A stretch of 62,308 nucleotides of DNA, counting the filler, from Sphacelaria rigidula (taxonomy: Eukaryota): assembly GCA_964200075.2 (NCBI GenBank). It is 9 parts of 9 records of this genome, joined end to end, with 100 filler letters (N's around TTAATTAATTAA, not from the genome) between each part and the next. Parts side by side here need not be neighbours in the genome. Positions count along the whole stretch, not along the records: positions 48,541 to 55,374 come from CAXNAA020017848.1; 8 more parts are not named here. The stretch is one strand, 5' to 3'. Of this stretch, positions 3,901 to 57,189 are shown piece by piece. Position 1 is the first letter of the stretch, and each line of letters opens with the position of its first letter. The notes below the pieces were generated by a model, which worked only from the letters and a program-made list of their open reading frames with translations, was not told the origin of the DNA and ran no database searches. The position numbers and the translations under genes are program-made.

Positions 3901-4199
3901 TCTATCCTCGTACCACTGTCGTCCCTCCCTTGTCCAAAAAATGAAATTCAACCAACCATCCAACCATTACATTCTCAAACAATCTTCGTGAATTACTTAA
4001 TTTAAATATACTGTTCTCCCCGTTGAACTCGGGGGAGCTACTTCTCACCGGTTTTCGTGGCGTCGCTCTTCTTATTTTTTCTTTANNNNNNNNNTGGGAA
4101 GGCGAGCCTACGTCTGTGACCACGGGTTCGCGAGATCGGACTAATGCGCGGAAATAATAATAATGAAAAACTATATTGTTATATATTATATATTTATAG

Positions 4200-6835: not shown

Positions 6836-6935
6836 NNNNNNNNNNNNNNNNNNNNNNNNNNNNNNNNNNNNNNNNNNNNTTAATTAATTAANNNNNNNNN
6901 NNNNNNNNNNNNNNNNNNNNNNNNNNNNNNNNNNN
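6836..6935. other. Artificial contig linker (44N-TTAATTAATTAA-44N); identical linkers at 13771-13870, 20705-20804, 27639-27738, 34573-34672, 41507-41606, 48441-48540, 55375-55474
   Basis: Eight identical 100-bp spacers with a six-frame stop cassette separate nine segments of 6835/6834 bp. Confidence 0.99.
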
Positions 6936-20312: not shown

Positions 20313-20804
20313 GTGTCAACGTTTTCCCACGCTCCTCTCCTGTTGTATCGTCGCATTCTCGTTTTCTGTCATCGCAGAGAATTCCGTCGTCGTCGTCGTC
20401 GTTGATATTGTTGCTTTTTGTTGTTTTTTGTTGTTTTGTTTTTTGTTGGTGGTGGTGGTAACAGCCAATAATCGAAATTGAGGATGGAGCTTTTCGCTGA
20501 GAATGAGAACCCGGAGGATTGAAATCGTCGTATCCACATCGAATCTCGGAATATGGTTTCATTCCTTCCCCTACTGGTAGCTGTTGACAAGTGCTACACG
20601 TCACACTAATTGTGATTTCGATAACGGAAATGTTGGGGTCCTAGGTGAAAACAGCCGATCATCTATGTTGAGGATGGTGCTTTTCATTGAGGATGAGAAC
20701 CCGGNNNNNNNNNNNNNNNNNNNNNNNNNNNNNNNNNNNNNNNNNNNNTTAATTAATTAANNNNNNNNNNNNNNNNNNNNNNNNNNNNNNNNNNNNNNNN
20801 NNNN

Positions 20805-21130
20805 CGTCTTCCCTGCAAAAGAGAAATGCCACTTCAACCCCATATATCGTATGGACCCCATTTTCTAGGATTCACTTTTTATACCTGGCAGTCTCTTTCT
20901 CTGCATGTTCTTCAAGCTATATCGCCATCTCAATTTCCTCATGCCTTCTGTTTGTTTCGAGTACATCCCCAACTCTGCTCTCAAAACTGTATTACTCGTC
21001 GTTTTCGAACATCCAAGTATCTTCTTAGCTGCTGCCACCTGTACTGTTTCTAACTTTTACACCAATTTCACGTTCCACTCCCATACTTCTCCTGCATATT
21101 CCAGCTTTGGTACAATCACGTTCATCAGGA
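20805..21130 (-). mobile_element. LINE ORF2 C-terminal fragment; same family as 57190-59430
   Basis: IVPKLEYAGEVWE...KLETVQVAAAKKILGCSKTTSNTVLRAELGMY; nucleotide match to 57900-58030 and 58455-58550. Confidence 0.85.
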
Positions 21131-23021
21131 AAAGTTCGGCATCTGCACCGCCCAGCCAAGGCATAAAGTATGCCATCCCGCCCGAGCACGCCATGTCCCT
21201 CTGTCGTGCAGTGATGATCTGAACTTGTTCCCCATAGGTTCCTCATTCTGAGAGGATTTTGACGGAGCTGAGCAGCAAGCACAAGTGTTTGACGGCGGCA
21301 GACGCTTCGGGAGAGTGACGAGACGACGGAGACTACAAGGGATCTTCACGTGAGGACCTCCAGCAAGTGGCCCAGACGAGCGAGCGTATACATCAACGAA
21401 GCAGAGAAAAACATTATTATTGTACGAAGGAAAGCGCAGGAGACCGTTTCGTGCTGCACTACAGAAGCGAGCAGCAGTCTTGTATTTATTTATTTTTTAC
21501 GGAATAAGCAGTAGTTCAGTACTGTTTCTCTCTTTTCGTTGGAACAGCTGTGCAGTATTTTTTTTTCTACTTTTTTCGGGATTGTTTTTACTCGTGTTTT
21601 CCCGTCATCATGAGCTCGGTTATATATCTTGTCATCGTTTCCGTTTTTATTTCTTTACTCTTCATCGTTTGATTTTGAGTTTTGAGACATAGGCTCAACT
21701 TTTTTGCCTCGTTCTTTTTACGGGTCTGAATTTGTCCCTCTAACCCTCATATTTTTCTCTGTTCGGTTTTCTGGTCTGGATTCCATGCGTTTTTTTTTCT
21801 CTTCTGTTCCTGTTTCTCTTGCGTTCGTCGGACTTGATCCTCTTCTCGTGTCAGGCCCTTTTATTTGTTTCCATGGTTCATGATTTTTTTCTCTGTATCT
21901 TGGACCTGGGGTATCATTTCTACTTTTGTTTCATGTTTCATTTTTTTTTTTTCCTTCCTCTTTTATGTTGCGGGCCTGGTTTGTTCGTTCAATTCTACTT
22001 TTGGGTTTCTCTCTTCCCCTTCATGTTTTCGCGAGGTCGATCTTGCTCCGGTCTTTTCGCTTTTTCCGGTCTTGCATTCCATGGGGATTATTCGTCATTT
22101 GTTTTGCTTGCTTTTGTCGGTGAACGTTGATCCGACTTTCGGGCGCCCCACCCTTTTTATGTAGAAATATTCCTGCGTGAGCACTGCACAATAGGATGGG
22201 CGCCGAGTACCTGCTGGGACACTCTATCGTGACTGAACTGTTGATATACGATGTAGCCCTCCAGTGTCCAGCAGATCAGCGGGTACTGGTCGATAGGAGA
22301 AGAAGCGCGCAGCGCTCCCATTAGCCAGTAAACGCTTTCTTGGGTTATTTTTTGTGGGTCAGCTCTTTGCGAGTCCCGCACTACCCAGGATTGGCGTATC
22401 CAATCACGGGTGTCTGAGCGTCGTTACTATCTGAAAATAGTCACATACTATTTTCGGTAGTGTCTGTTCTCCACTTTAACTGAGATCCCGGAAAGACATC
22501 GCACATGCGAAAGCAGTCGCTATGATCTGAAAGGGCGTGAGAGATTTTTTCCCCCAAGCGATGAGCGTTTCCCTGAATACCAGGTTTTGCCCATCTTCTG
22601 ATTTCATGACGAGTTTTTCCCGCGCTTAACCCTAGCCCCGAAGTTCTGCAGTTTTCTCGTCTTTGACGTGATATTAGGCTGATGGCATCAAGATCCATTG
22701 GGAGCGAGAATGACGAACAGAGGGAACGTAGCTGAGAGAATTTTCTCCGACTTTGTTGGGAAACAGAAGCACTGCGTACCTAGACTCAACACCCACCTCA
22801 ATGATCTTATTGAACGAGACCCACCTCAATGATCTTATTGAACGAGCTCTCAGACTCCTCATCCCCTCTGTCCTGGACCAGTCTAGTCTGCAATCGATCA
22901 TGCATCACCAGGTAATGAGAGTGTCACTAGAACTACGACCCTTGCGGGTAGAAGCACAAGATCCATTGGGAGCGAGAATGACGAACAGAGGAAACGTACT
23001 GCGCGAATTTGTTTCGACTTT

Positions 23022-23810
23022 GTGAAGCTGTTGGGAAACAGAAGCACTGCGTACCTAGACTCAACACCCACCACCAAGCCTACCTCACGCAATACGTCTC
23101 GTGCAGCGTCCATCGCTGATGTCCGTGCCCTAATGGGACAGTCAAAACAAGATCTCGAGAAGGCACTCCTTGCCAGACACAACGCAATCGCAGCATGCAA
23201 CGTAGGTAGCGTGAACATACAGCCAAACCCGACCATCTGCTCTAATTCCGAACAAAGTATATGGCAATCGCCATGCCTATCGTGTCATCACTGCGCACCT
23301 ACATGCCAGACAGCAAATCCTACCTTGAGTTGTCACAACACAGTAGCAGCTTTTTCCAACCAACCCGCCTCAAAACCGGGTGAGCACGGTGTACCGTTCT
23401 CTGGGAAACCCCAACAATTCAATAACACCTCGCACACAAGTACATACCATGGAGGTCCCCCACCAACTACAACCCAGGGCCAAGTGGGCACTGCTACGGT
23501 CAGCAACCCACCTTCACCAGATTCTCCACGTACGGAGATCATCGATTTCTTGCGCAACGCACGAATTTGCTTTCGACACGCCTTTGGGGTAGAGTGCAGA
23601 CGCCCACGGTGCCCCTACATACACGAGGTAAATACCTTTCCGAGGGGCTTTTACTCTCAGACATACCGATCACAACCAGGAGGCGCGAAGCGCACACACC
23701 AAGCTGACGAATCAGAACAACCCAACAAAAAACCTCGCCGCATCACGGTAACCCCTGAGCAACTTGAAATGATTTCAGCTATTACCGGACTCGAATTTGA
23801 GAGCGATTAG
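23022..23810 (+). pseudogene. gag-like ORF (C-terminal part) with CCCH-type finger
   Basis: Open frame directly upstream of and overlapping the protease frame; contains CFRHAFGVECRRPRCPYIH. Confidence 0.6.
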
Positions 23811-25412
23811 GAAGACGGAGCAGAGCACACCACCTGAAGGTGCGCCCCGGGTAGTACCTCACTCCCGGGGAACCTCAACGCTGTGCCGTCACCAAAACCC
23901 TCCAGTAGTACGAATCCAGCAGGAAGCGAGGCTAGCCACGTACCAACGATCGAAGAAAGAGAAGAAGGCTGCGGCCGCCGAACGTATTGCCACAAACAAG
24001 AATCGCAAAGCACAAGTTTGGGTACAGGCAAAAATCTGGCATCCCCATAAGTTGAGCATGCGACTCCCTGTCTCTGTCCTGTTGGACACGGGTGCTGGTG
24101 GGGGAAACTACGTGTGCGGTACTTTCTGGCAGTCGATTTGTAAGTGGGGAGGAACACCGGATCGCCAACTAGATAAGAGAGGTGCAGGCGCGTTGAGGGC
24201 AGCAAACCCGGAGGAAAACCAGGTACCGCCGATGGAAATTCTAGGCTCCTCTACAATACCAGTCATCTTTCCCCCGGAAGATAAAGTACGCAACATCGCA
24301 GTACGTGTAGTCAAGGGCTTTCCATACGCCCTGGTACTGGGCGCTGCATTCTTTCCCAAAAACTCAAGCGTCCTATCATTTGACAAACATCAAGGCTTCT
24401 GCCCCACGCCCGACGCACCATGGATACCACTCGACACCCGTAGCTCGATACTCTCGCCTAATACTGAACCATCAAGTGCGACCCCGTTGGCTGCGAAAGA
24501 CATTCAAGCATCAAATGATTCGGAAAAAATGCCTGGCGTACCCGAAGGGGCCTCCACAGAAGCCGAGAGTGCCACGACAAATGGTACACCATCAGGATCG
24601 ACCCCGTTATCAGCAGAAGGTGTACAAGCGTCGAATGATTCGAAGGTCACACCTGACGTAGCCGAGGTATTATGGGGCACGTTCTGTGCTGTCATACCCG
24701 GGGAAGAAGTTGAAGTAACCAGAGCTGTTCCCCCCGTCTACACTAGACGCCTTCAACCCCTCCATCGCAACGATCACAGACAGGATAGTGAGCAACACAT
24801 TCATGGGTAAGGCAGTTTGGGAAGACGACGGTACTCTGCAGTGGGCATTCTCCCTACCCTCGCCGCTGCAACCACCAGGCTTTGTCAGCACAGCAGTAGA
24901 GGGACGCACCAAGGGTCCCCTCTCTCAAGTACGGCAACTGGTACTGATACTACCTACTGAGGATTACGATTTAGAGAAAGGTGCGGTGCTAGGCGTAGCG
25001 AGAGGTATTCAGTGGTTGGAGCCCGGTACACCCGTAGTATGCAAGATAGTGAACAGGAGCCCCAACCAGAGCCTCATCGAGGCAAGAAAACAGATAGCAC
25101 AGATAGTGGCGGTTAATATCGTTGACGAGGAACGCTTCCACGCGCTTTTCCTCCCATCGAACCCCGAAAACAGCGAGGACGACACATCACACTATACACA
25201 AGCATGGACTTCACATGAAGTCAACGAGGACGGAAAAGAGACGGACGAGAACACAATCATGTCTAATCTCAATGACGCCAACCTCGGACAGCTCAGCATC
25301 CCTGAAAAACAAAAGCTTTTAGCACTGCTAGACGAGTTCCGGCATCAAGGGATCTTCCCAGTAGACCCCAAAAAAGTCACGCCCCTGTGACCAAGGTAAG
25401 ATTCCCATTCTG

Positions 25413-26666
25413 TTGAGAGATGAACGATATAAACCTGTGGCAACGAAGCAGCGACGTTTTTCTCCCGCCGAAACTGAAGCAATACAAGCCGAAGTAGAAA
25501 AACTGTACCTACGAGGTATCATTCGTCGGTCAGAGTCGGAATGGGCAGCAAGATCACTCGCGGTACCAAAAAAAGACGGCGCACTACGCCTTTGCCATGA
25601 CTACAGGGAATTGAATGATCTCACGGAAACAGACAGCGGGGGTCTGGGGGACATCGAGAGCATGCACGACAGGCTAAGTGGTAACAAATATATTTCGACA
25701 TCAGATCTCGCCTCAGGGTACTTTCAACTCGAAATCGAGGAGAATGACAAACACAAAACAGCCTTCAGAGACGCCCTCGGCCAACTTTGGGAATACAACA
25801 GGTGTAGCTTTGGGTTGAAAAACCTCCCATCCGGCTTCACCAGAGGTATATCCAAAACCCTAGGCTCCATCATAGGTAAAGGAGTTCAGGTATGGTTGGA
25901 CGACATTCTCATCTTCAGCAAGACACTCTCTGAACACCTATACCTAATACGGAAAGTTATCTCGGGACTGTTGGAAGCAAAACACTCTGTCAACTTTGCG
26001 AAGTCGTCATGGTGCATGCCGAACCAGGAGTTCCTGGGGATGGCGATCGACCGCGAGGAAAGACGTTCGGCCCCATCCAAAATCGAGGCATTCAGTAAAC
26101 TCTCACCCTCGAACACGGTAAAAGAGCTACGGGCTTTCCTCGGCATGACCGGTTACATGCCATCTTTCGTCGACCATTACAGCATTATCGCGGCCCCCCT
26201 GACCGACGTCCCACGTGATCCTCGCTTTCAGTCAAAACGCGCTAGAAAACTGAAAATCCCTTGGGACGACGGAAAGCAACAAGCTTTCGAGAAGTTGAAG
26301 GAGGCACTCATATCCCCACCGGTTCAAGCATACCCCTTGTGGGAACACCCCTTCCCCCTACACACCGATGCAAGTATTTTGGGGGCTAGCGCGAAACTGT
26401 GCCAAACAATAGATGGCGCCGAGAAGGTAGTAGCATACGCTAGTCATCGGTTCTCGCGTACAGACTCACTGAGGGCAGCAACGCATCGAGAATGCATGGC
26501 CGCATTGTGGGCGACGGGGCACTTCAGACAATATATTACAGGTAGAAGATTTGATCTCGTTACAGATTGCAGCGCACTCCTCTGGCTACTCAGAAGTAGA
26601 GACCTCGAACCCAAATTACATCGATGGGCCCTACGATTGATGGAGTACGACATGACACTACGCTAG
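25413..26666 (+). pseudogene. Ty3/gypsy reverse transcriptase-RNase H
   Basis: 417-codon open frame with all RT and RNase H motifs, bounded by a frameshift upstream and a stop downstream. Confidence 0.95.
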
Positions 26667-27379
26667 AGAGCAGGCACATGCCACCAACTCCCCGATGCTT
26701 TATCCCGCTTATTTGGCAAAACCGCAGAAGGTACAAATGTTGACGACGCTTTTCCGGATGACTCCACCCTAAAATCCGACCGGTGCACGAAGGGCCCGCA
26801 AGGACGCGTCTTGGATGAAGTCCCCTTGAGCCAACTAGGGGAAGAGACAGGGATACTGGTGGGATCTGCTTTCATCACAGCGTTGTGGTCGATGACAGCC
26901 CCGACAGACAGCAAGGACTGCCCTACAAATGAATTCACACAGCAAGAACCTGGCCAGATATCTGACACACAAACCCATGAAGCGGAAGTAAGCGCAGCGA
27001 TGACTCAGCTGTCGGAAATGCCATTCGCCTGAGAAACGGTGGTAGCTTTGCATGATGACGTCCAACATGAACCACGCAGATCTAGCAGAGCCCGCGCCCG
27101 TTCTGTCAGACTCAAGGATTTCATAACCGACGAACCCATTTCCGTACCGCAGAGCATCCCCCCAACCCACACAGACTCTCAGCAGACACTGTCGAACAGC
27201 CAGGAATCGAGTCCCGTTATCGTCGAGGAACACAAGAACAACCGCTCCAGAAGTGACTCGCCCAATAGTCACGACTCAGTCATCAACAGAGCGATCAGTA
27301 CTCTATCTGATTTACCCAGCCTAATCGAGAACCAGAAAAACGACCCCTACCTGAGCCAGATCCGAGCTTCTCTAGAGCA

Positions 27380-27636
27380 ATGCTACGGTAGGGGTGCAAT
27401 TTTTTCGCGAAATTTTGTCTGGTTCAGGGGCTCCTAACGATTCTAGACGCGCAAGAATACGGGTCAGGGCATCCCCGTTTGCGGATTTATTCGGGATATC
27501 CCCAGCACATTGGAATACATTGAAATAGTAATCCTGGCGTACTCTCGCATATTTTTATAAGTCGTGTTTTGGATGAGATAAGGGGCTCCTAACAATTTTA
27601 ATCTCAGAAATTATTTCTGAACCCCTACCGTAGCAT
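27380..27636. mobile_element. MITE with perfect 16-bp inverted ends inserted at the start of the gypsy integrase
   Basis: ATGCTACGGTAGGGGT (27380-27395) and ACCCCTACCGTAGCAT (27621-27636). Confidence 0.85.
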
Positions 27637-30600
27637 CANNNNNNNNNNNNNNNNNNNNNNNNNNNNNNNNNNNNNNNNNNNNTTAATTAATTAANNNNNN
27701 NNNNNNNNNNNNNNNNNNNNNNNNNNNNNNNNNNNNNNTTTTATTATTTTAAACAAATATATATAAAAATTAAGAAAAAAAAAAAAAACTATATGTCAGT
27801 ACGGCACTGCACTGTTGTATAAACTGTACCGTGGCATATACTCAACCAACTGTATCGCAGTCTGCTGCGCTGACGGCAGCACGTTATCCTCACTGGAGGC
27901 AGTGTACGCTGTTTGGGTTACAAGGTCGAAACTAAAGGTTGCGTAGTACTTGCTGTCATATATACACAAGTATTCGATAGATGAGCAGAAAGCATTGCTG
28001 TCATAGTCACATCGACTACTACTATAGTGCATTCCTGATCACAAGAGAGCTCACAGAGGGGTCACTGCGATCTCCCAGGCCCCTCCTTTGCAGCAACGAA
28101 CGTTCGTTTCCGGTTGTATCGGGTCGGAACAGCACACCGCAGGCCATGCCTATACCCTATCCAACTCTTCACATGCGCTACGCGAGGCTGCCCATTCTTG
28201 ACAAGAAAAAGGCGCGAGAAGAACTTCGCATTTTGGAGAGGTGCTTTGTGCTGTGTACTATATTCTGTCAGCCCCGATGGTTGTTTCCACGGTGCAAATT
28301 CAAGCCAAGGGCGAAATATTGTCTTCAGTAAGAGTAAAATGGAGTTTCCTCGAGTTTGCTCAAAGCACCTCGAACATCGGCTTAACCGTCACAGCATCTC
28401 CGGGGTAGGATTATATCGGTACAAGTTCGGGCGTACTACTGACTATACGTGCCGTCTATAGCGGGCAATTCTCGGTCAAAGTTGCTGTTCTAACGTGCAT
28501 AAAACAGTCCTGCGCCAAAAGAAAATATATTTATCTATATTTTAGAACAGAATTGGAGCTCTTCTCACCCCCTCGCGCCCTGCTGCAACGCCCAACCCCG
28601 GATCTAGAGGTATGGACTTGTTGATTGTCGTCTGCATGACATGCCAGCAAAGTTTCAGGGCATAGAAGCGACGACAGCGCGCGCATGACCGTGCCTCCTG
28701 CCCTGAGCATCTCTACAGTCGATACCGGCATGTGTTTTCTATAGATTGCCATCATCCATCGGCGGCGGCAGAAATGATCTATGTTTGTTTGCGGGCACTT
28801 CAGCCTCCCAGGTGGTTACGATGCGGAAGTAAGAGCGCTATCACGTCGACCACGGTACACAGCATCTCGGCCGCCAGGAAATCGTTTTGAGGCCATACAG
28901 ACGGTATTGCCCAAAAATGGAATTCGCTTCGTCTAATTTGCTCGGGGAAGGAAAGTGGCTTTGCTCCGGTACATACACTGGCTGTGGTGTGCCCGACTGG
29001 TGCACCAAGTTTCACGTGGGTGCCTGCAGCGGCGGTCGAGAACTTCCACAATCAAAAATGAAGGGCAAACGTCGAAAATGGCACCGGTCAACCGTCGAAA
29101 GATACACCAGCTGCAGTTACGCCGCATAATCCTCGTACGAAACCATACTGGCGCAACCGCTGCGCCCCTGCGGCAGCACAGGAGAGATGGGGACAAGGGG
29201 ACAACCGTACTTGCCAGCACTGTAGATCTGGCTTCGCCACACCGCCCCGCCAACCGATATGCCATCAATCATGTCGGCATTAACAGGGCATGCGCATCTA
29301 GTGTTGTGTTCCTAATCCACACTGTATTGAGCTGCAGGCGACAGAATACTGTACACGACGGCGCTGCCGAGCATGGTACAGACAGTAGCTTTGTACAGTA
29401 GTAATCACATATCAGAAAAAGGGGTGTAGCACATTACACATTTTTCATACTGTGTTTTATGTGAAGTTTTCGGCGTTAAAGGCGGCGCAATTGGCTGTGC
29501 ACGGCATGCATGCACAAAAGTTTGTCGTGTTACTTGCTCGTTGAAGCAAATGACCTAATTCCTTTTTGTGTGGATTGAATACATCGTGCACTAGCCGGAA
29601 CGCGTCCTTTTGGCCTGGTGCCCTGAGCGTGGTCGCCACCTGTCGGCGTTGCATTGTGCACGAGATGCACCAATGAAGAGCACCACAATTCAGACCACCC
29701 CATGTGGGCAATCATCCCTATTTCAGCCAGAAATCTACATCCACGATCCCGCCTTGAGCAAAGCTTGCAAGCGATGCCACGTGTTGGGCCGATGCTCCCT
29801 TGTGTCGGGCCCGCTGCTCGTGTGAACTTTGTCTACTTCACGGCTGATATCAGTCGAATGCTGGTCAAATGGATATTCTATGCGAGCATGCCGGTATTGG
29901 ATTGTTTACTTTATTTTGACGCAGTACTGAAAACGAATGCCGACGCTTGTCGAATAGCCATTCATTCCACTCCGCAGGGGGCTGGGTGTAGAACATGACT
30001 AATATGTATGGTATACATCTTTCCTCGTATCGCCTAAGCAACCCCGCACCGTACACGAGGCCTCTCTTCAACTGTTGGGGTGTACCTGTGGGTGTTACGA
30101 ACCACTTCCACTTCTTTCACAAAGGACTCGCGTCAACTTGTCGACGCAAGCAGCAAATCTCACGTGAACACTCTCGGCCTCAACATAACCCTTGGACGGC
30201 GAGAGTAGATCATATGTTGGATCAGCATCAATCTCACTTGAAAAAATTATGCATGATCCAGACCAACCACCCTGGCGGTCCAATGGTAAAAAATCACCCG
30301 CATCGCAGTAATGATTCATTGATTGGCTGATTGATTGTCATGCATGAACCGGTGCCCTACGAATCCATTTGTGTTCTTGGAATACAGTAACGAGGGTAAA
30401 AAAAAGGAACAACCGCGAAAGAAAACTCGAGCACGAAACGAGGGAATATGGAGAGTACGAGAGGCACAGAACCGGGAGAATATTCGTTGTAATCACGAGT
30501 CGATCTCCGTTTCACCATTCCTTGCCCAGCAGAAAGGAATCGTCCGGGCTGATCACAAAGTTGAGAACGTTTGAAGCCGCACGCTTTTTGTTTTCAGCCT

Positions 30601-46710: not shown

Positions 46711-48540
46711 GCGTGTAGAGGGGAAAATAACTCGATGAAAAGGCGGGGAAAATGGAAAATGAAAGCACGCCACGAAACACGGCAAAACTGGAAGAAAAGC
46801 GACAAGATGACGCAGCAATGAAGAAGAAGGAAGAGGAAACCAACAGGCGAAGGATACCCCCATCGTGGTTTGAGCAAAATAGTCCTAATGTGGTACACCC
46901 CACCATCCAAAGGCGATGCGCTCATCCTGAGGACAACAGGAACCATTGCCGCCGTGGCCACCTCTCAGGAAGTCCGTACACCAGGCCGTGTTTGCCGTCA
47001 CGTCTCCGCCACTATCTGTATCTTGCAAAACCTGATACCATTATCATGTTCCAATCGCATAGTTTCAGGGGAAAATGAAACAGGACTGTGGGTGCAGAGG
47101 CGACTTGTTTTTTCGAAAAGGGGCCGGGAGGGAGTTGCGCTCAAATTTACAATATGTACCCGTGTGTCGACTGCAACGTGGCGCTATGTGGCAGAGTAGA
47201 TTTCCACTGTATCCCTGAGCGGAGCGAGCAAGGTTTGAATCATGTGTACGGGTTCTCTTTCGAGACGGAGGAGAGGAGGGGGAGGGGAGGAGGGCGTCTA
47301 GGAGGGGGAGGTGTACTCGTGGTCTTGCATGCCGTAGTCATATGATCATTGACCTCGCATCCCTACAAAGCCGAGATGGAGAACGTCGAGTTTTCGCCGG
47401 ACCAGACTCGCAATCAACCACCAAGCGCGAAGCCCCGCCATGTGCTCGGCGAGTCGCATGAAGAGTGAGCTGCATCCCGCTGAAATTGTTTAGCCTGAAT
47501 CGTACTGATTATCTTGCAGTGGATCTACAAGCGCCTACTCCACTTTCAGAGACAGCCATCTGTTACATACTGCCTCATGGGTGTCTCACCATGTAAACAC
47601 CACCTAGAAGGATCGCCCCCTTTGCATGAAGTTCAGGTTAACCATCCCGAACAGTAACACCTCGCTCCATCATCATGATTACCGCCAAAAAAAACGAAAG
47701 GGTAAAAAACCTTGAAACCCGATTGCCTAGCTGACGCAGTGAGTGGCGTGGTTTACGGCGTCGTTGCCAACCAACGCTTACCCCAGGGGTAGGGGGGTGG
47801 GGGGGGGGGTACTCATGATCATGCATGTAATAGTCATTAGACCTTTGACCTCGCATCCCTACAAAGCCGGAACGGGGCACGCCAGGTTTTCGCCGGAACA
47901 GGCTCGCACTCAATCACCGAGCGCGAAGCGTCGAGGGGGGGGGGGGGGGGGGGGGGGGAGAAAAAAAAGGTAGGGGGTGGACGGCGGAGCCCCCAACCAC
48001 AACAACAGTGGGGGNNNNNNNNNNCGCTCAGGGTGGGGGGTTCGGGCGGGGGATGGGCGCCCTAGAGGAGGGTCGAGGGGGGGGGGGGGGGGGGGGGGGG
48101 GGGAAACTAAAAGCGCGTTATGATGTGCACGGCTGAGCCCCGTACACCAACGAGTATTGGCGAGTGAGTGAGCCACGCATATCAATTCGTACTGGAGGAT
48201 GCGTACCTCGTGCACAACAACGACTGGACAATGACAACCAAAAAACGAAACGTACCTTTTCGCAAAATTGTTGCCTGACGTAGCATGGCTTCGGCACGCG
48301 ATCATACCGTTCGTCCAGGAGAAACACCTACGTTGGCCGTGTTGTCCGCGAGTGGGGAGGGAAGGGGGGGGGGGGGGGGGGGGGTTCTCTTTTTTTGTTT
48401 TCTTTTGGGTTTGTACACTTGCCCACCCCTCCTTTTCGGGNNNNNNNNNNNNNNNNNNNNNNNNNNNNNNNNNNNNNNNNNNNNTTAATTAATTAANNNN
48501 NNNNNNNNNNNNNNNNNNNNNNNNNNNNNNNNNNNNNNNN

Positions 48541-51500
48541 CACCCTCGACCGCCTCTTCACCCGCACCGCCGATCGCCGCGAGCCCACCCGGAGCGAAGA
48601 TCTCGGTGTCGAGAAGACGGTTGGGGACGTCATCGGTGCGGTGGTAGGCCCGTCGAGCCTCGACCACGGCTCGATCGATCGCCTCGGCGTCGAACCGGTC
48701 ACCGGTGAACTGCTGCGGGATCAGTCGGGTCTCGAACAGCTGGCCTCGGGACAGGCCGGTGATGATGACCGGAGCCCCGACCTCGACCGCACGGTTGGTC
48801 GCCAGCGTGTAGATCGCCTTGTAGCAACCGTTGCAGACGTTCGAGAACCGCTCGAGGCTGTCACGGAAGATCTCGTTCATGGCCGGGGTCGACATGAACT
48901 CGTGGTCGATGCCCAGATCGGCGGCCGACTGTCGGGCGTTGGCCTTCGCACCGTCGGAGATGAACCCGTTGTCGAGGGTGAGGGCGAGCACGTCGAAGCC
49001 GGCGTCGACCAGCTGGTAGAGGGCGTAGGTGGAGTCCTTGCCGCCGCTCAGCAGATGGATGGCGTCGTACGTGCCGGTGCGATCGGCCCGGGCCTTGTCT
49101 CGGATGGCGACGAGGTCGTCTCTCGTGCCGAAGTACGAGGCAGCCTGCACCTTCACTCGATCGTAGGAATGGCAGACGGTGCAGACTCCGTCGGCGTCGA
49201 AGCTGGTGCCGGGCACTCGTGACGACAGCCCGCAGCGCACGCAGTAGGTGACGTCGCCGGCGGCGATGATCTCCGACGGAGTCCAGACCCGAACGGCGGC
49301 GACCGAGATGGCGGGGTGGTCGGCGAGCGCCTGCTCGACCTCGCTGGGGTCGAGGCGAATACCACCGACCTTGACCTGTTCGTCAGCTCGACCCAGGTAG
49401 GTGAGGATCAGCTCACTCTCGGAAGGCGTGCTGCCGGAACCCTCGACCTCTTGTGGACGGCCGGGTGAGAGGCGCACGAGATCGCCCGATCGGTACCAGC
49501 GACGTCCGCCGAGTTCGACGAACGCTTCACCTCCGGCACCACCGAGGTAGCCGGTGGTGACCCCGGCATGGCTGATGTAGAGCTCGCCGACCGCGCCGAT
49601 GGGCACGAGCTGGCGATGACGGTCGAGGACGGCCAGCCGCACGCCGGGCGCCGGGCGACCGATCGGTACATCCGCGGTCGCCTCGAGTTCGGCGGGGTCG
49701 GCGCGGTGGATCATGCACCCCACGACGGCTTCGGTCGGCCCGTACTCGTTGAAGAGCACGAGGTGTGGTTGCCAGTCCCAGAGGCGGCGGGCCAGACGAC
49801 TGGTGAAGGCCTCGCCTCCGACGACGAGGGTGCGCAGGGCGTGGTCGGCCGGGATCCACCGCAACAACAGGTCGAGGTGCGAAGGGGTCGCCTTCGCCCA
49901 GGTGATGTCGGGACGCATGGCGATGGCTCGAACGGCGGCCGGGCCGTCGTCGGGAATCACCACGAGTCGCCCGCCGGCGAGCAGTGGGGCGAACAGGGTG
50001 GTCACGGTCAGGTCGAAGGTGAGCGCGGTGAAGAGCGCGGCGACCGGAGCGGGCTGCTCGACGAAGTACGACGAGCGAGCGAAGTCGATGTAGCCGGCGA
50101 GTCCCCACTGGGTGATCGGCACGCCCTTGGGCTCGCCGGTCGACCCCGAGGTGTACAGGAGGTACGCCTCGTCGTCGGGATCGATCGCCGGACGCTCGAC
50201 CTCGACCTCGACCTCGGGTTCGGCCTTCGTGGATGCCGCTGGATTCGCCTGCAACAGCTCGCTCGACTCGGTGACGGTCAGTACCGCGCCGGCACGCTCG
50301 ATCAGGGTGTCGAGACGAACTCGAGGTTGAGCGGGGTCGAGCGGCACGTACGAGGCACCGACGGTCATGACGGCGTAGATGGTGATGAGCGTCTCGACCG
50401 AGCGGCCCATCTCGATGGCGACTCGGTCGCCTCGGTTCACGCCGTGATCGGTCAGCGCTGCGGCCCGCTCGTCGACTCGTTGCCACAGTTCGACGCCGGT
50501 GAGCGGGTCACTGCCGTCGGCCGATTCGACGACGACGTCGGTCCGGGTGCTGACGGCGCTGCGGAGCTGTTCGACGACCGGGCCGGGAGGCTCGGTGGCT
50601 TCGGGGCCGGTCCCCCACTGCACGAGGCGAGCGAGTTCGTCGGCCGTGACGATCGAGCGTGCGCCGATCGGCTGATCGAGATCGCCCAGGAAGGTGTCGA
50701 GGACGGTGAGGAAGTGGTCGGGGGCGAGCTCGCCGTGTTGGGGGTCGGCGGCCGCTTCGTTGAGGTCGAGCGCGAGCTGCAGGCCGCCGTCGCCGTAGCC
50801 GGTGAGCTGGACTCGAAGCAGGTGAGTGGGGTCGGTGGCGCCGGGATGGATCCAGGTGGTCGTCGCCGGAATCGGGCCGAACGAGCCGTACCCCATGTTG
50901 GGGATCACGTTGACGACGGTCTCGAAGTCGGCCGGTGCGGTGCGGCCAAGCTCGGCGTTTCGGAGCGTGGTGAGGATCGAGCGGCCGATGCGTTTGTGCA
51001 GCGAACGGGCGGTGTCGTCGGGTTCGATCTCGATGTCGACGCCGAAGACGTCCATGACCGGACCGACCATGGATCGGGCATCGGGGGTCGAGCGGTTGTG
51101 GACCGGCATGCCGATGGCGAACCGATCGGCGCCGGTGAGGCGGTGGAGGTAGAGCGCCGCCGCGCTCATCATGAGCGTGGTCCAGCCCAGTTCGGGGCTC
51201 AGCATCCGCAGGTCTGCGGCCAACCGCTTCTCGGCCTGGGCCAACCGATCGGTGGCGGCGATCTCGACTCGGCGGCTGGCCGGTGTCGGCCGGGTCGGCG
51301 CCGAGTACAGGCGGCCGATCTTTGGGGCGTCGGGACGAGTCGACCAGAAGCGCTCGATCTTGTCTGCACGTTTCGACCCTGCGGCCGTCGTCGACTGCGC
51401 CGTGTCGGCGAGGCTGCGGTACCAGCGGTAGTAACTGACCTGCTCGGTCGGGGGCTCGCGGCCTTCGACCAGGGCGTGGTAGGTCTCGGCGACGGCGGCG

Positions 51501-51934
51501 AACACGAGGGCGGCCGAGGTGGCATCGGTGGCGATGTGATGGAAAGCCAGGTACCACGAGGTGGTGCCGTCGGGATGTCCGACGATGACCGAATCGGTGG
51601 GTCCGACCGAGAGGTCGATCGGGTGCTTGGCCCGTTCCGATGCCCAGTCGGCGACGGCATCTCGATCCAACGAGATCCGTTCACTGGTCGGCGAGGTGCC
51701 CGAGACCTGGGCGACGGCCACGCCGTCGACGTCGTCTACTCGGGTGCGGAGGGCGTCGAATCGCTTGGCGACGAGGGCGAAGGCGTCGGCGAGCACCGAC
51801 GCCTCGATCGGGCCGTCGAGATGCGACAGCAACGCCATGTTCTGGTGGCCGGCCTCCGGGCTGCGTCGCTGGGAGGCGAGCAGTGACCGCTGCATCGGCG
51901 AGAGTTGGGTGCCGATGCGGACCGGGGTGGTCAC
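48541..51934 (-). CDS. NRPS: condensation domain + Asn-type adenylation domain interrupted by a PP-loop (ANH-like) domain; 3' end cut by contig edge
   Basis: C motif FHHIATDA; A motifs YLLYTSGSTGEPKGV, FDLTVT, NEYGPTEAVVG, YRSGDL, GRADEQVKVGGIRLD; then CVRC...CTVC...LLSGGKDSTY...TLDNGF...VCNGC. Probable start GTG at 51934 overlaps the carrier-protein stop (GTGA). Confidence 0.93.
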
Positions 51935-52185
51935 GAGGGGGCCGCCAGTCGGTTCATGAAGGCCACCATGAGGTCGACGGTCTGGAAGTTCTCCAGGACC
52001 ACGTCGCCCGGGTCGATCTCGACCCCGACTCGCTCCTCGAGCCATTCGACGATCTGGACCACGCCGAGCGAATCGACGAGGCCCGTGAGGAGCAGATCGG
52101 TCGAACCCTCGACCTCGACGGAGGGGTCGAGGCTGATGTCGTCGTTGATGAGCGAGATCAGCTCGTTGTCAAGGTCTGCGCTCAC
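51931..52185 (-). CDS. Stand-alone acyl/peptidyl carrier protein (84 aa)
   Basis: LLLTGLVDSLGVVQIV phosphopantetheine site, ENFQTV C-terminal motif; GTG start overlaps the upstream stop, preceded by caggag. Confidence 0.93.
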   Translation of the reverse strand: MSADLDNELISLINDDISLDPSVEVEGSTDLLLTGLVDSLGVVQIVEWLEERVGVEIDPGDVVLENFQTVDLMVAFMNRLAAPS

Positions 52186-53726
52186 GCGTGCTCCTGCTGG
52201 AGTTCGGTCCGAACCAGTCGGACATCGATCTTGCCATTCGAGGTGGTCGGCATGGCTGGTCGGGCGGCAAATGACGAGGGCAGCGCGGCGGGCGAGACCC
52301 TCGAGGCGACCCACCGCCGAAGCGCTCGAGGATCGAATTCGGCGTCGTCGTGCATCACCACGACTGCCGCCAGCTGGTCGTTGCCGGCGTCTGGTCCGAC
52401 GACGGCGTGACGCACTCCCGGGGCCGAAGCCACGACCGCCTCGATCGATTCGAGTTCGAGGCGCACCCCGCGAACCTTGACCTGATGGTCACGGCGGCCA
52501 CGGAACCGAAGGGTGCCGTCGAGGTCGACCGTCACGAGGTCGCCGGTTCGATACCAGTCGGGTCCGTCGGCTCTCGGCATGCTGGTCAGTTCGTCGAGCT
52601 CGGGCTGCTCCCAGTAGCCGAGCATGCGGGTCGGGGCCGACACCACCAGTTCGCCGACCTCGTCGGCATCGTCGGCCAGCGGCGTCGTGCGGTCGGTTCC
52701 GACGATCAGGTAGTCGACGCCGATGGCCGGAAGTCCGATCGGTGTGTCGACCTCGTGGGGTGCCGGCGGCGCGATCAGATGGTGGTGGGTGATGGCGTTG
52801 ACCTCGGCCGGGCCGTAGACGTTGGTGATGAGCACGCCGGGGAAGGCCATCATCATCCGACGGAGGCCGGCGGTCGGGAACGGTTCGCCGGCGTAGGCGA
52901 TCGTGCGCAGCGGCGAGAAGTCTCGTTCGTCGAGCACGCCACGGTCGACGACCTGCTGGAACATGAATGGGACGCCGTACCAGATGGTGCAACGAGCGGC
53001 CGCTGCTCGTTCGGTGAAGGTTGCCGGGAACCGGAGTTCGGCCTCGGAGAAGATGGCCGACGAGCCCCCGACGTACGGCATGGCGTACAGCTCGAAGGTC
53101 GACATGTCGAAGTGCAGAGGCGTCAACGCCGCCAGGCGATCGCTGCGGGTCAGCCCGAACTCCTCGGCGGTCATCGCCGCGTAGGCCAGACCGCTGGCGT
53201 GGCTGTGCACGATCCCCTTGGGGACGCCGGTCGAACCCGAGGAGTAGATGATGTAGGCGGGAGCCTGGCCGGTCGAAGGTTCGGGCAGTTCGTCGGCCGA
53301 CGGCAGCTCCGGGCACTCGACGAACTCCTCGATCACCGCAAGCAGGTCGGGAACCGTCACGTCCAGGTCGAGCTTGACGGTCACCGACGGATCGCCGATG
53401 ACAGCCGAGGGTCGAGCGTTTGCGACCAGCGGCTGGAGCGCGGCGGCCGGAGCCAGCGGATCGATGGGCACCACGACGCCGCCGGCACGGTGGATGGCGT
53501 GGACCGCCATGAACGATTCGATGCTCTTGCGTCGGGCGACGATCACTCGATCACCGGGCTGCACACCGGCGGCGAGGAGGATGCGAGCACCGAGCGCCGT
53601 GCGCTCCTCGGCGTCGGCGTAGGACACCTCGATGAGGGTCCCGTCGTCTTCGTGGCCGACCAACACCGTGGCGTCGGGATGCCGTCGGGCAGTTTCGGAG
53701 ATGAGAGAGCCCAGGCTTGCGATCAC
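52182..53726 (-). CDS. Stand-alone amino-acid adenylation enzyme, L-proline:carrier-protein ligase-like (RedM/PltF type)
   Basis: YIIYSSGSTGVPKG, PLHFDMSTFELY, TIWYGVP, YAGEPFP, NVYGPAEVN, WYRTGDLV, GRRDHQVKVRG, SNGKID. Substrate assignment rests on motif similarity and context. Confidence 0.85.
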   Translation of the reverse strand: MIASLGSLISETARRHPDATVLVGHEDDGTLIEVSYADAEERTALGARILLAAGVQPGDRVIVARRKSIESFMAVHAIHRAGGVVVPIDPLAPAAALQPLVANARPSAVIGDPSVTVKLDLDVTVPDLLAVIEEFVECPELPSADELPEPSTGQAPAYIIYSSGSTGVPKGIVHSHASGLAYAAMTAEEFGLTRSDRLAALTPLHFDMSTFELYAMPYVGGSSAIFSEAELRFPATFTERAAAARCTIWYGVPFMFQQVVDRGVLDERDFSPLRTIAYAGEPFPTAGLRRMMMAFPGVLITNVYGPAEVNAITHHHLIAPPAPHEVDTPIGLPAIGVDYLIVGTDRTTPLADDADEVGELVVSAPTRMLGYWEQPELDELTSMPRADGPDWYRTGDLVTVDLDGTLRFRGRRDHQVKVRGVRLELESIEAVVASAPGVRHAVVGPDAGNDQLAAVVVMHDDAEFDPRALRRWVASRVSPAALPSSFAARPAMPTTSNGKIDVRLVRTELQQEHA

Positions 53727-53817
53727 CTACCCATGGTACGAAATCAGGAGCCTCGGTATGAGAGCAGTTTCGCCCCTCCCTCGAGTGTCGAGGCGTGCGC
53801 CATGCTTGAGTGAACCT
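53727..53817. promoter_or_regulatory. Short divergent intergenic region, expected to hold both promoters
   Basis: 91 bp between head-to-head genes; no promoter motif identified with confidence. Confidence 0.4.
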
Positions 53818-55068
53818 ATGGCAGCCCCCGAAATCACCCAAGACGCCGCGATCGATCTGCGAACGTCGTCTGCCGAGCCTGCCACTGTGACAGCCACGGT
53901 GAGTGTGCTCGACGCGATGCTCGACCTCGCCCATCCGGTGAAGATGGCCATGGCCGAACTCGCCGGCGGGTTCGCCATGCCTGCCGACACCGTGACGTTC
54001 GATCGTGAGGCGTGGAAGGCGGCGGCCGACGCCGGCGTGCTCGGTCTCCTCGTCGATCCGGCCCACGGGGGGCAGGGCCGCTCCATCGTCGAGGCGCTCC
54101 TTGCCTTCGAGGGGCTGGGCCTCGGCACCGACGCCCACGGCACCGTGTTCGCCCTCGCCTCGCAGGTGTTCGCCATGCAGCGAGCCCTCCAGGATTCGGG
54201 CACGCCTGAGCAGCTCGAACGCTGGTTGCCGTCGTTGGTCGACGGCTCTTCGATCGGCTCGTTCGCCATGACCGAACCCGATGCCGGGTCCGACACCGCC
54301 GGGATCACCACCCTGGCCACTCCCGTTTCCGGAGCAGCCGATCGGTGGACGCTGAGCGGCACGAAGACCTGGGTCACGCTTGCGCCCCAGTGTGACGTGA
54401 TCATCGTGTTCGCAACGACCGACCCGACCAAGGGCCGCTGGGCGCAGACTGCGTTCCTGCTCGGGTCCGATCGCGCCGGCATCTCGGTCGGCGAGGCCAT
54501 CCCGAAGTCGGGCTTGGCCGGTTGCCCGTTCGCCTCGGTGACGCTCACCGACGTCGAGGTGTCGAGTGATGACGTGCTCGGCAAGGTCGGTGCCGGCGGC
54601 AGTGTCTTCACCAGTGCGGTCGATGCCGAGCGGGCCTTTCTCTATGCCGCCCAGCTCGGGGCGATGGAGCGCACGCTCGACAAGACGATCCAGCGAGCTC
54701 GTACCCGTGAACAGTCGGGGCAGCAGATCGGCAAGTTCCAGGCGGTGTCACATCGCATCGCCGAGATGAAGCTGCGCCACGAGTCGGCTCGCCTGCTCGT
54801 CTACAAGGCGGCGGCGTTGCATGAGGCCGGCCGTTCGATCACGTTGGCCGGGGCGCTGGCCAAGCTGGCGAGTTCGGAGTCTGCGGTCGAGTCGGCAATC
54901 GACGCCATCCAGGTCCACGGGGCCGAGGGCTATACGCTCGCCGCCGGGATCGAGGCCGACCTGCGCAACGCCGTCGGCGGTCTGGCGTACTCGGGCACGA
55001 GCGACATCCAGCGCAACATCGTGGCCGGCCTGCTCGGCGTGGACCGGCCCCTGCGGAAGCAGCGATAG
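53818..55068 (+). CDS. Acyl-CoA dehydrogenase family protein, prolyl-carrier-protein dehydrogenase-like (RedW/PltE type)
   Basis: FAMTEPDAGSD, LSGTKTWVT, AERAFLYAAQLGAMER, REQSGQQIGKFQAVSHRIAEM, QVHGAEGY, YSGTSDIQRNIV. Start placed at ATG 53818 (uncertain). Confidence 0.9.
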   Translation: MAAPEITQDAAIDLRTSSAEPATVTATVSVLDAMLDLAHPVKMAMAELAGGFAMPADTVTFDREAWKAAADAGVLGLLVDPAHGGQGRSIVEALLAFEGLGLGTDAHGTVFALASQVFAMQRALQDSGTPEQLERWLPSLVDGSSIGSFAMTEPDAGSDTAGITTLATPVSGAADRWTLSGTKTWVTLAPQCDVIIVFATTDPTKGRWAQTAFLLGSDRAGISVGEAIPKSGLAGCPFASVTLTDVEVSSDDVLGKVGAGGSVFTSAVDAERAFLYAAQLGAMERTLDKTIQRARTREQSGQQIGKFQAVSHRIAEMKLRHESARLLVYKAAALHEAGRSITLAGALAKLASSESAVESAIDAIQVHGAEGYTLAAGIEADLRNAVGGLAYSGTSDIQRNIVAGLLGVDRPLRKQR

Positions 55069-55105
55069 GACAGCGCAAGCAGCGCCGCGTACGCGGCGCC
55101 GGCGT

Positions 55106-55374
55106 TCAGGCTCGGAAGAACCTGATGACTCGCTGAACGAGCGAGACCTGCGGAGCCTCGATGAACTCGACTGGCTCGCCGACGGGACGACCGGGTGCGA
55201 AGAGCGGCTTGACCAGAGGGCGCCGTTTGACGAAGAGCGCAGTGCGGATGTCGTCTGCGGTCACCTCGGCTGGGTGGAACAGTCCGACGGAGAGAGTCGA
55301 CGAGTCGGCGGGACCGACCGGCGTCATCGGGCGTTCCTGGACCGCTGCAGTCGGGTGCAGTTCGGTCTGGTCGT
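55106..55374 (-). CDS. C-terminal fragment of a bacterial hypothetical protein (convergent, 5' truncated)
   Basis: Open frame from the contig edge to a stop at 55106 (...QVSLVQRVIRFFRA); no motif. Confidence 0.45.
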
Positions 55375-55553
55375 NNNNNNNNNNNNNNNNNNNNNNNNNN
55401 NNNNNNNNNNNNNNNNNNTTAATTAATTAANNNNNNNNNNNNNNNNNNNNNNNNNNNNNNNNNNNNNNNNNNNNCATGCCACCTACAGGCGGTTCTTTCA
55501 TCGCACCGTCCAAAACAATTGGCTGCGGCATACGTAGAATTGATCAAAAATCA

Positions 55554-55608
<55 letters not shown>
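55554..55608. repeat. (GTT)n microsatellite
   Basis: Directly visible. Confidence 0.97.
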
Positions 55609-55609
<1 letters not shown>

Positions 55610-57189
55610 GTCATGGTATTGGCAGGGGCTAGTCTCGGGATCTCTCGGGCATACATGTCTCGAGTAAAGCAACGTTTGGATATGAATATTCGATTTGGCC
55701 GTTGAGAGACGCCAGTTTGTTGGAAGATCCAAATCGATGTTCTGAAGAGCAGTCGATGTGATACAAGTTGTATGGTTGATTGCCTTGTCTGCTGCGCATC
55801 GAGCGTTCATGTGCACAACAGCTAGCATTCCCGGAACGTTCGTTGGATGGAGGATTTTCTCTATCTGCTTTTCGATCCTTTTGCCATGACTAGATACGGA
55901 TATAGTTCCTGCGTAAGGTAGTCACACTGGTGTCCCGAGTGCCCACCATGAGCACTCATTTTCGGATCCAGGACATCATCAGCTTTGGCCACCGTTGCTC
56001 TGAGTTCCAAATGAGTCTTTAACAGTAAGCTCTATAGTAGTTTGGGGGAACTATTAGCTCTGGTTCGTATTGTAAACTACAAGAAATGAATAATTCATTT
56101 CTGTGAACATCTGGGTTTAAACTGTTACAGTGACAGCTCTGCATTGCAACCAGGCACATACGGCTCGAGCCTCTGTTCGTGAGAACATACAGGACAAAGG
56201 TGTAAGGTGGCTGCCTTCTAGGAGACGACTAGACCTCATTGTATGATATGTTGTTGTTTTTGTTGATGTGATGATGATGGCGATGATGACGATGATTATG
56301 TTGTCTGTGTAGAGCGGGCAACGCGAGTTCTAGGGCTTGGGTTGTTGCTGCGGCCGTCATGCCCCCTGTCGGTGCGTCGAGGATAAGTCAAGGACAAAGG
56401 AAATCTCGTCTGAAAGACTGGTATTCGTCTTGTCTACGCCTTCTCAGAAAAATGTCCGCGGTCCAAGGACGAAGAAGCCGCAGTTTCTTTACAAGAACCA
56501 CATATCTATCGCTACACACGCATAGCATGTCAGAAAATCGCTTCGCCCGTCAGCGGTCATGGAATGCGTGCATGCTTTCCTTGTAGTTGGCGGTTGCACG
56601 TGCTCATAACTTCGTTTACTGTAGCAGCCTGCTGCGACGATAGGCAGATTCGCTCGTTCTCTCCCATGATATCAATGCATTCACGCCAAGACGCCAACGA
56701 CAGCCTACTCCACTCTGTCGAATTGCTCCATCTTTCTATGGTCTTCACGCGCGCGTCCATGCAGCCTCAATTCACCGGCTGTGAATCTCTGTTCGGCGCC
56801 ATGAAGGAGGCGTGGCAGGTTTGTTGCCAGGTGAGCTTCGCCCGACGCGAGTAAATAGTTGATTTCCTTAATCGAAAGTTTCGTCGGCGCGTTCGAATGA
56901 CAGCAACACGCGGGGCAACGGTGGGTACATGCAACTGTAGGATATTGAGTGCCAACATCACAGCATGTCACGCTTGTTCTCCGCGCGCGGGGGGAGCGGA
57001 GGCGCGGCGGCGGCAGAGTTCTCTTTCAAGTGAACCTGTATGCGTACAAGTTGGCGTCGAGTGCAGGGCTCCTTAGGTCCTCCAAGTATGTGTAGGTGAC
57101 AGCATCATGGCCCAAGCATGTGAGAGGGGTGGAGGGGGTGCTGATTTGTTGCTTGGCTTAGTCGTTTGACCATTGACCACGCGCCTCCT

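Follow-up and report, generated by a model that had tools for sequence, protein, structure and literature searches.

A 6,834-bp contig (CAXNAA020017848.1) of the Sphacelaria rigidula assembly GCA_964200075.2, lying at positions 48541 to 55374 of the window, that is, of the 62,308-nucleotide stretch of DNA analyzed here, carries four genes of nonribosomal peptide synthesis. These encode a stand-alone adenylation (A) enzyme, a free-standing carrier protein, a divergently transcribed flavoenzyme of the acyl-CoA dehydrogenase (ACAD) fold and a truncated nonribosomal peptide synthetase (NRPS) in which an AMDH-type PP-loop domain is embedded in the A domain. The reading that we favor, with somewhat better than even confidence, is that the fragment would encode the front half of a small thiotemplate line in which a pyrrole starter caps an altered asparagine, with histidine to follow. 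The parts are of known kinds (a proline-to-pyrrole cassette, an AMDH-Asn module and a His module), while their union and the in-line placement of the AMDH domain represent a variant that appears to be new. The contig is bacterial, and its related loci point to an uncultured actinobacterium of the Acidimicrobiales type.

Gene organization of the cluster

Three of the four genes are encoded on the minus strand. The stand-alone A enzyme (52182 to 53726, 514 amino acids) matched the Pfam families AMP-binding (2e-68) and AMP-binding_C, and the carrier protein (51931 to 52185, 84 amino acids) matched PP-binding (9e-7), with its phosphopantetheine serine in a DSLG motif at 52069-52071. The NRPS gene (48541 to 51934) begins with GTG at 51934 and keeps 1,131 amino acids before its 3' part is cut by the contig end; it comprises a condensation (C) domain, an A domain up to motif A8 and the AMDH-type domain, and it matched Condensation (7e-35), AMP-binding (3e-62) and a QueC-type PP-loop family (6e-6). 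The flavoenzyme gene lies on the plus strand (53818 to 55068, 416 amino acids), and all three ACAD domains were recovered in its product (Acyl-CoA_dh_N, _M and _1 at 4e-33, 6e-21 and 3e-14). These matches confirmed the four genes, with their coordinates, that had been proposed in an earlier note made from the sequence alone.

The two GTGA overlaps described in that note proved real as well. At 52185-52182 the stop of the A enzyme is shared with the GTG start of the carrier, and at 51934-51931 the carrier stop is shared with the GTG start of the NRPS, which puts both ends of the carrier gene in overlaps. As had also been claimed, the dehydrogenase gene is divergent from this group; the spacer between them measures 91 bp (53727 to 53817, between the A enzyme start at 53726 and the dehydrogenase ATG at 53818). 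No sigma-70 consensus was found in the spacer, and a scan of the contig for promoter and terminator consensus sequences found none. The longest open reading frames (ORFs) over-extended two of the starts, placing that of the NRPS at 52045 and that of the dehydrogenase at 53632.

Conservation of the gene set in related bacteria

A scan of species-representative genomes yielded 80 related loci (numbered with the prefix L), nearly all in metagenome-assembled genomes (MAGs) of Acidimicrobiales or Ilumatobacteraceae. Fifty-nine of them, in which 4 kb or more precede the NRPS, were evaluable for the starter cassette, and 64 were evaluable for a His module; genes in the relatives were called with a GC1 > GC2 filter against antisense ORFs in high-GC DNA. 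The trio of A enzyme, carrier and dehydrogenase stood beside the same NRPS in 48/59 evaluable loci, 34 of which had the exact arrangement of the window, and the remainder consisted of seven loci with a partial cassette and four with neither the A enzyme nor the dehydrogenase. Thus, the architecture is not rare or nearly unique but conserved in Acidimicrobiales MAGs. The contig is collinear with the Acidimicrobiales MAG locus L002 over contig positions 65-6544 at 74.5% nucleotide identity, and the proteins of the two are 82% (dehydrogenase), 71% (A enzyme) and 76% (carrier) identical.

Downstream of the AMDH module, a second A domain with the code DS[AV]L[IVM]AEVW was present in 59 of the 64 evaluable loci, including L002, the nearest relative. 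This count is based on the code; a count based on tblastn scores (26/64) is an undercount. A published analysis gives DSALIAEVWK as a histidine signature (PMC12283262). The lines end in a carrier-thioesterase (T-TE) pair in L044, L060, L014 and L029 and in a further C domain in L004. The family line thus runs starter, Asn(AMDH), His and release, of which the window holds the first half. A product consisting of a mere acyl-asparagine, as first envisaged, does not agree with the His module of the relatives.

Some loci depart from this pattern. In L016, L018, L020 and L027, the same C-A(AMDH) NRPS occurs with a HupE-like gene, no stand-alone A enzyme or dehydrogenase lies in the 4-10 kb upstream, and the only carrier-like match there lies on the other strand. 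A different starter may prime the Asn(AMDH)-His line of these four loci. L006 holds, near 14934, a third A domain after the His module with a different code (DAE-IGTVV), which suggests that some family members make a longer peptide. The nearest full-length relative (L002, 11200-20200) comes from a bin with long contigs, and its NRPS is split over several frames; because of these apparent frameshifts its gene models are not taken at face value. Gaps of about 1.1 kb between the dehydrogenase and the A enzyme, which many loci show, were considered as sites of an extra gene, and they turned out to hold N-terminal extensions missed by tblastn in L029 and a cyclodeaminase gene in L055. Likewise, an ORF at 16540-18099 of L068 was rejected as an antisense miscall, the stretch being the His-module gene.

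The asparagine module and its embedded AMDH-type domain

The adenylation core of the NRPS (motifs A1-A8, minus strand, 49292 to 50524, with A8 at 49334-49393) has the specificity code D-L-T-K-V-G-E-V-G. The pattern DLTK[VIL]GE[VI]G was found in the NRPS A domain of 72/80 related loci, and DLTKIGEVGK is listed as the code of the albicidin beta-cyanoalanine module (PMC12283262). Judged by its residues, the code is of the asparagine/AlbIV type.

About 30 residues after A8, the first two thirds or so of an AMDH-type PP-loop domain begin (48605 to 49258, minus strand). The domain contains a four-Cys ribbon made of two CxxC pairs (49229-49246 and 49172-49189), the loop SGGKDS (49031-49048) and a CNGC motif (48824-48844), and the CxxC pairs, SGGKDS and CNGC were invariant in all 32 aligned AMDH sequences, namely that of the window and 31 homologues (51-68% identity). 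In full-length relatives, the AMDH domain has about 340 residues, with A9, A10 and a carrier domain after it; here, some 215 conserved residues are kept and about 120 that are present in the relatives and in CysH are missing. When the retained part was aligned by eye with the AMDH domain of CysH, using the sequence in the supplement of PMC7966384, a manual count gave about 109 identical residues in 214 positions (~51%) with one gap. More than 1,500 homologues of the embedded domain were found, the closest of which (60-70% identity) are in Acidimicrobiia bins. At the level of sequence, these results indicated true homology between the embedded domain and its AMDH counterpart in CysH, and together with the A domain code they bore out the earlier proposal of an asparagine module with an AlbIV/CysH-like domain.

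Experiments described in PMC7966384 showed that the CysH AMDH domain dehydrates carrier-bound asparagine to beta-cyanoalanine and, once CysJ has beta-hydroxylated the residue, isomerizes it to isoasparagine; numerous AMDH homologues in Asn-type A domains of uncharacterized clusters are mentioned there as well. The corresponding 342-residue insertion of AlbIV is described in PMC12283262 as an adenine-nucleotide alpha-hydrolase. Relative to CysH and AlbIV, the family studied here shares a PP-loop domain of ~340 amino acids with an SGGKD(S) loop, placed after A8 of an Asn-type A domain, and it differs in three respects. CysH and AlbIV act as stand-alone A-T modules that deliver their product in trans, whereas the module here belongs to a regular C-A-T order and is predicted to be acylated directly by the starter. 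Their partners are para-aminobenzoates, in contrast to the predicted pyrrole-type starter and histidine of this line. Finally, neither a hydroxylase nor a methyltransferase of the CysJ/CysQ type was seen in the relatives.

With regard to the hydroxylase, no CysJ-like gene was present in the annotated flanks of seven relatives (L002, L004, L068, L029, L044, L014 and L011). A Pfam match to Asp/Asn beta-hydroxylases in L004 was considered as a CysJ analogue and rejected, since NCBIfam assigned it to the OlsC/LpxO lipid hydroxylases and it occurred at 1 of the 80 loci. Given that the seven annotated relatives have no CysJ-like gene, the nitrile would be a likelier outcome than isoasparagine.

The fold of the domain was consistent with chemistry of this kind. 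An AlphaFold model of the fragment (predicted local distance difference test score, 85.4) showed a PP-loop ATP-pyrophosphatase fold, and its best structural match was the amidotransferase 8wex (6e-7), followed by LarE, TtuA, the NAD and GMP synthetases and QueC. In NCBIfam, the domain matched the WbuX N-acetyl-sugar amidotransferase family (1.2e-23) over half of the model. What these enzymes have in common with the domain is the fold and the SGGxDS loop; WbuX (1.2e-23) and QueC (6e-6) are remote relatives, and here an amino acid tethered to a carrier is the predicted substrate, with the domain itself sitting inside an A domain. Since the PP-loop enzymes matched by the AMDH domain adenylate a carbonyl oxygen, the domain would fit an ATP-driven activation of the asparagine side-chain amide. 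A mechanistic precedent is QueC, which uses ATP to convert an amide to a nitrile.

The first domain of the synthetase is a C domain (50951 to 51907, minus strand) with an intact His motif, HHIATDA (51521-51541). Its best solved matches were 7c1k, 7c1h and 7c1p (~1e-15) and the C1 domain of CDA synthetase I (3e-12). We take all of these to be starter C domains that receive their donors from free acyl carriers, the 7c1 entries presumably being the starter C domain of the rhizomide synthetase RzmA. By these matches the domain resembles starter C domains, as the earlier note had held; it stands first in its synthetase and would be fed by a free-standing carrier as they are. The similarity is modest, and CDA C1 and the 7c1 domains take fatty acyl donors, whereas the donor predicted here is heteroaromatic.

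The stand-alone A enzyme and the flavoenzyme of the starter cassette

The best single-domain solved match of the stand-alone A enzyme was PltF, an L-proline-carrier ligase (200.4 bits), ahead of Txo2 (186 bits) and the A2 domain of LgrA (165.2 bits). LgrA as the closest solved relative was rejected, because its total of 270.8 bits is a sum over two domains (103.2 + 165.2). The A enzyme of L066 has a more proline-like code; it is a generic A domain with LgrA leading its matches. In 13 of the 80 related loci, a member of the ornithine cyclodeaminase family is encoded among the cassette genes or next to them (for example, L004 8979-10025), and its best NCBIfam score is that of ornithine cyclodeaminase (184 against a cut-off of 350). 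Such an enzyme would supply proline from ornithine.

For the flavoenzyme, the two best NCBIfam models were the RedW prolyl-peptidyl carrier protein dehydrogenase (314.7 bits) and PigA (306.4 bits), with the next family at 204.3 bits. Its top four solved matches were AnaB (8e-73), 6cxt (1.6e-65) and two PigA entries (~1e-63). In the printed alignments, a YSGTS motif (54988-55002) replaces the YEGT of ordinary ACADs and is common to AnaB, 6cxt and PigA, and the glutamate in DAERAF (54622-54639) aligns with the same position in all three; we take this serine and this glutamate to have catalytic roles in prolyl-carrier dehydrogenases. The same affinity was found throughout the family. Among 41 family dehydrogenases (nine further loci, whose tblastn ranges contained a stop, were excluded), every one matched RedW (best 1.6e-113) and PigA (best 1.9e-106), and 37 matched AcrC (best 2.7e-83). 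A plasmid tblastn search for annotated prolyl-carrier dehydrogenases returned only proteins labeled generically as 'acyl-CoA dehydrogenase family protein', at 43% identity or less. By these scores, the enzyme is nearest to the prolyl-carrier-protein dehydrogenases RedW, PigA, AnaB and 6cxt.

Proposed pathway and its alternatives

The chemistry of the pathway proposed here is inferred throughout, and the sequence supports the domain assignments alone. The stand-alone A enzyme would charge the 84-residue carrier with L-proline or a closely similar cyclic substrate, and the divergently transcribed flavoenzyme would oxidize the bound prolyl residue, with pyrrole-2-carboxyl-S-carrier as the most likely result. 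The starter-like C domain would pass this acyl group to an asparagine that the A domain of the same module has loaded. The AMDH domain between A8 and A9 would then activate the side-chain amide with ATP and, by analogy with CysH acting without a CysJ-type hydroxylase, would mainly dehydrate it to beta-cyanoalanine, with isoasparagine as the alternative. In the relatives, a His module would extend the chain, and a thioesterase or a further C domain would release it; these parts are lost here. The start of the product is thus predicted to be most likely pyrrole-2-carbonyl-(beta-cyanoalanine or isoasparagine)-His. The minimal product expected for the TE-type relatives is N-(pyrrole-2-carbonyl)-beta-cyanoalanyl-histidine (C15H16N6O4, 344.12 Da), the amide form of which would have a mass of 362.13 Da.

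Several observations weigh against this pathway, and most of them bear on one of three alternatives. Those that concern the line as a whole are that all relatives are metagenome bins, that everything downstream of the truncation is inferred from relatives 65-75% identical at best, and that which of its reactions the AMDH domain performs is not readable from sequence.

The remaining points begin with the code of the stand-alone A enzyme, D-M-F-Y-A-A-V-A-I-K in a MAFFT alignment anchored on the core motifs. The inner eight code residues of stand-alone proline enzymes are given as L(L/F)YLALVC in PMC3874040, and MFYAAVAI is identical to this consensus at three of eight positions (F239, Y278 and A301) and to the modular proline pattern at two of eight. 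Of the three positions at which CcbC contacts proline according to the same source (236, 301 and 330), two differ, 236 being M and 330 being A. Moreover, no cyclodeaminase gene is present on the window contig, in L001 or in L002. The enzyme could instead load a substituted proline, pipecolate or another amino acid, which the flavoenzyme would desaturate to a starter other than pyrrole-2-carboxylate. Positions 299 and 330 hold small residues, which points to a larger pocket; in the comparison of CcbC with LmbC, alkyl-proline use is linked to a reduced residue size at the equivalent of position 330 (PMC3874040); and the codes vary, 30 different ones occurring among 57 family sequences. The commonest of these, QFYLGVQC (16/57 sequences), agrees with the proline consensus at four of eight positions, and the best member agrees at five. 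On the other hand, most family codes retain the pair F239-Y278, no solved single-domain match scores above PltF, the flavoenzyme groups with prolyl-carrier dehydrogenases, and the cyclodeaminase of the 13 loci scores best as the proline-making ornithine cyclodeaminase. With the PltF match set against a 3/8 code that differs at positions 236 and 330, proline is our best guess and is not secure, and we regard a non-proline substrate as unlikely.

A second group of points concerns the extent of oxidation. The scores of the dehydrogenase lie far under the equivalog cut-offs of its best models (314.7 against 650 bits for RedW and 306.4 against 500 for PigA), and AnaB, its single best solved match, presumably stops after a two-electron oxidation. 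If the flavoenzyme did the same, the starter would be dehydroprolyl or 1-pyrroline-5-carboxyl, and no sequence determinant is at hand that separates the two- from the four-electron outcome; pyrrole and pyrroline formation are not separable by sequence. However, the lead of AnaB among the solved structures is small (249 bits for 4irn, 225 for 6cxt and 218 for PigA), the pyrrole-forming RedW and PigA models are the best families in 41/41 members, and AnaB-type clusters feed a polyketide synthase (PKS), not a C domain. An AnaB-like arrest therefore appears quite unlikely to us, and oxidation to the pyrrole remains the outcome that we prefer. Of the pyrrole starter cassette as initially claimed, the kinship of the dehydrogenase with prolyl-carrier dehydrogenases and that of the A enzyme with PltF have stood, and the identity of the substrate as proline and of the product as pyrrole have not been secured.

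The last points concern the integrity of the fragment. At 48541 the contig stops within the embedded domain of the NRPS, and this truncation removes from view the last third of the AMDH domain, A9-A10 and the carrier domain. In addition, the terminal 64 nucleotides (48541 to 48604, minus strand), which encode the last ~21 NRPS codons, match no relative in any frame, while the NRPS sequence preceding them is 60-70% identical to relatives; this stretch is probably an assembly-end artifact or mis-assembled contig end. Such an end, and an incomplete NRPS on a 6.8-kb unplaced piece of a concatenated record, might raise the suspicion that the four genes are neighbors serving no common pathway, or that the fragment is a chimeric or dead remnant with no coherent function, owed to assembly or contamination, but this is very improbable in view of the four open frames with strong family matches, the 4-nt overlaps that join the minus-strand genes, the collinearity with L002 and the recurrence of the same set in 48/59 loci from many bins.

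Relation to known pathways

The cassette shares a separate A enzyme, a carrier and an ACAD-fold flavoenzyme with PltF/PltL/PltE, RedM/RedO/RedW, PigI/PigG/PigA, the Bmp proteins and AnaC/AnaD/AnaB. It differs from them in its sub-cut-off scores and 3/8 code, and in the predicted hand-over of the acyl group to an NRPS C domain. The best-known prolyl cassettes deliver the acyl group to a PKS or first to a halogenase, and no halogenase gene was found near the cluster in the seven annotated relatives named above.

Our literature search, made mostly outside subscription journals and without coverage of MIBiG, found no characterized pathway with this combination, in agreement with the earlier note. 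Within the same search, the phrase 'AMDH domain' occurred solely in the cystobactamid paper and its author correction; apart from these two, a code survey from 2025 was all that turned up. No publication was found that joins Acidimicrobiia, nonribosomal, pyrrole and gene cluster, none that joins pyrrole-2-carbox* with cyanoalanine or isoasparagine, and none with the specificity codes of the family, the code strings being absent also from the supplement of PMC12283262.

The union of these parts recurs across dozens of uncultured Acidimicrobiales genomes and constitutes a lead for genome mining in an order from which, to our knowledge, almost no natural products have been described. It also offers a cis, in-line context for the AMDH domain, which as far as we know has so far been studied solely in trans-acting stand-alone modules. 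The TE-type relatives represent a compact five-gene target for heterologous expression.

A possible metal-binding product

We tentatively suggest, while considering it rather doubtful, that the product of the family, N-(pyrrole-2-carbonyl)-X-His with X being beta-cyanoalanine, is a small metallophore of a novel type. By analogy with the amino-terminal Cu(II)- and Ni(II)-binding (ATCUN) motif, the pyrrole nitrogen, two amide nitrogens and the imidazole of the third-position histidine would form a 5,5,6 four-nitrogen chelate. The His-type module in 59/64 loci and the TE-ended three-unit lines of L044, L060, L014 and L029 fit this suggestion. Furthermore, a HupE/UreJ_2 membrane protein of ~460 amino acids is encoded in 48/80 loci, usually adjoining the cluster (L004 4368-5747, L068 6371-7786, L044 6822-8201, L014 8349-9824 and 44 further loci), and L029 carries a NicO/RcnA-like nickel/cobalt transporter gene (20508-22493). 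The HupE/UreJ_2 and NicO/RcnA-like genes are hints of a metal-related role for the product. For the present fragment, the suggestion is weakened by two findings, namely that no HupE gene lies within reach in the window contig, L001 or L002, and that in the sub-clade of the window (L001 and L002) the line terminates with an additional C domain in place of a TE. The idea of a nitrile-bearing, ATCUN-like metal binder is testable, and, if it is true, uncultured Acidimicrobiia would use the product to handle nickel, cobalt or copper.

The contig end and the surrounding pieces

Beyond the dehydrogenase gene, the contig holds the 3' end of a further gene (55106 to 55374, minus strand, 88 codons), the 5' part of which is lost at the contig end. 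It is convergent with the dehydrogenase gene. Neither Pfam nor NCBIfam returned a match for it, and the corresponding position of L001 and of L002 holds no counterpart.

The window consists of nine pieces of 6,834-6,835 bp each, separated by eight identical 100-bp linkers at 6836, 13771, 20705, 27639, 34573, 41507, 48441 and 55375, with a spacing of 6,934 bp. This pattern is as expected for unplaced contigs that were sorted by length and strung into one record. Each linker has the form N44 + TTAATTAATTAA + N44, and those at 48441 to 48540 and 55375 to 55474 part the bacterial contig from the previous and the next piece, respectively. Because the pieces are concatenated, adjacency from one to the next has no biological meaning. 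The contig, bounded by synthetic linkers on both sides, is therefore physically unlinked to its neighbors, which ruled out linkage to them or a horizontal transfer into a eukaryote; its place among them is no evidence either way on the alga-associated origin suggested in the earlier note. Base composition also sets it apart (62-71% GC, against ~42-53% in the neighboring pieces). In the protein collection searched, the NRPS fragment of the window is listed on a contig that likewise measures 6,834 bp. For the genome record, this means that piece 48541-55374 is to be regarded as bacterial and as unlinked to the eukaryote-like pieces around it.

An Rfam scan of the window gave no match. In the piece at 20805-27638, an ORF on the plus strand (25413-26663) matched RVT_1 (4e-19) and RT_RNaseH (2e-25) and looks like part of a retroelement of the long terminal repeat type; three same-strand ORFs upstream of it had no family match. 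Since one of them carries this reverse transcriptase-RNase H gene, the low-GC neighboring pieces look eukaryotic. They further contain short N gaps of 9-10 bases (at 4086, 46446 and 48015), and their long G runs and a (TGT)n microsatellite (47930-48110, 48360-48390 and 55550-55610) are low-complexity features typical of draft eukaryotic sequence.

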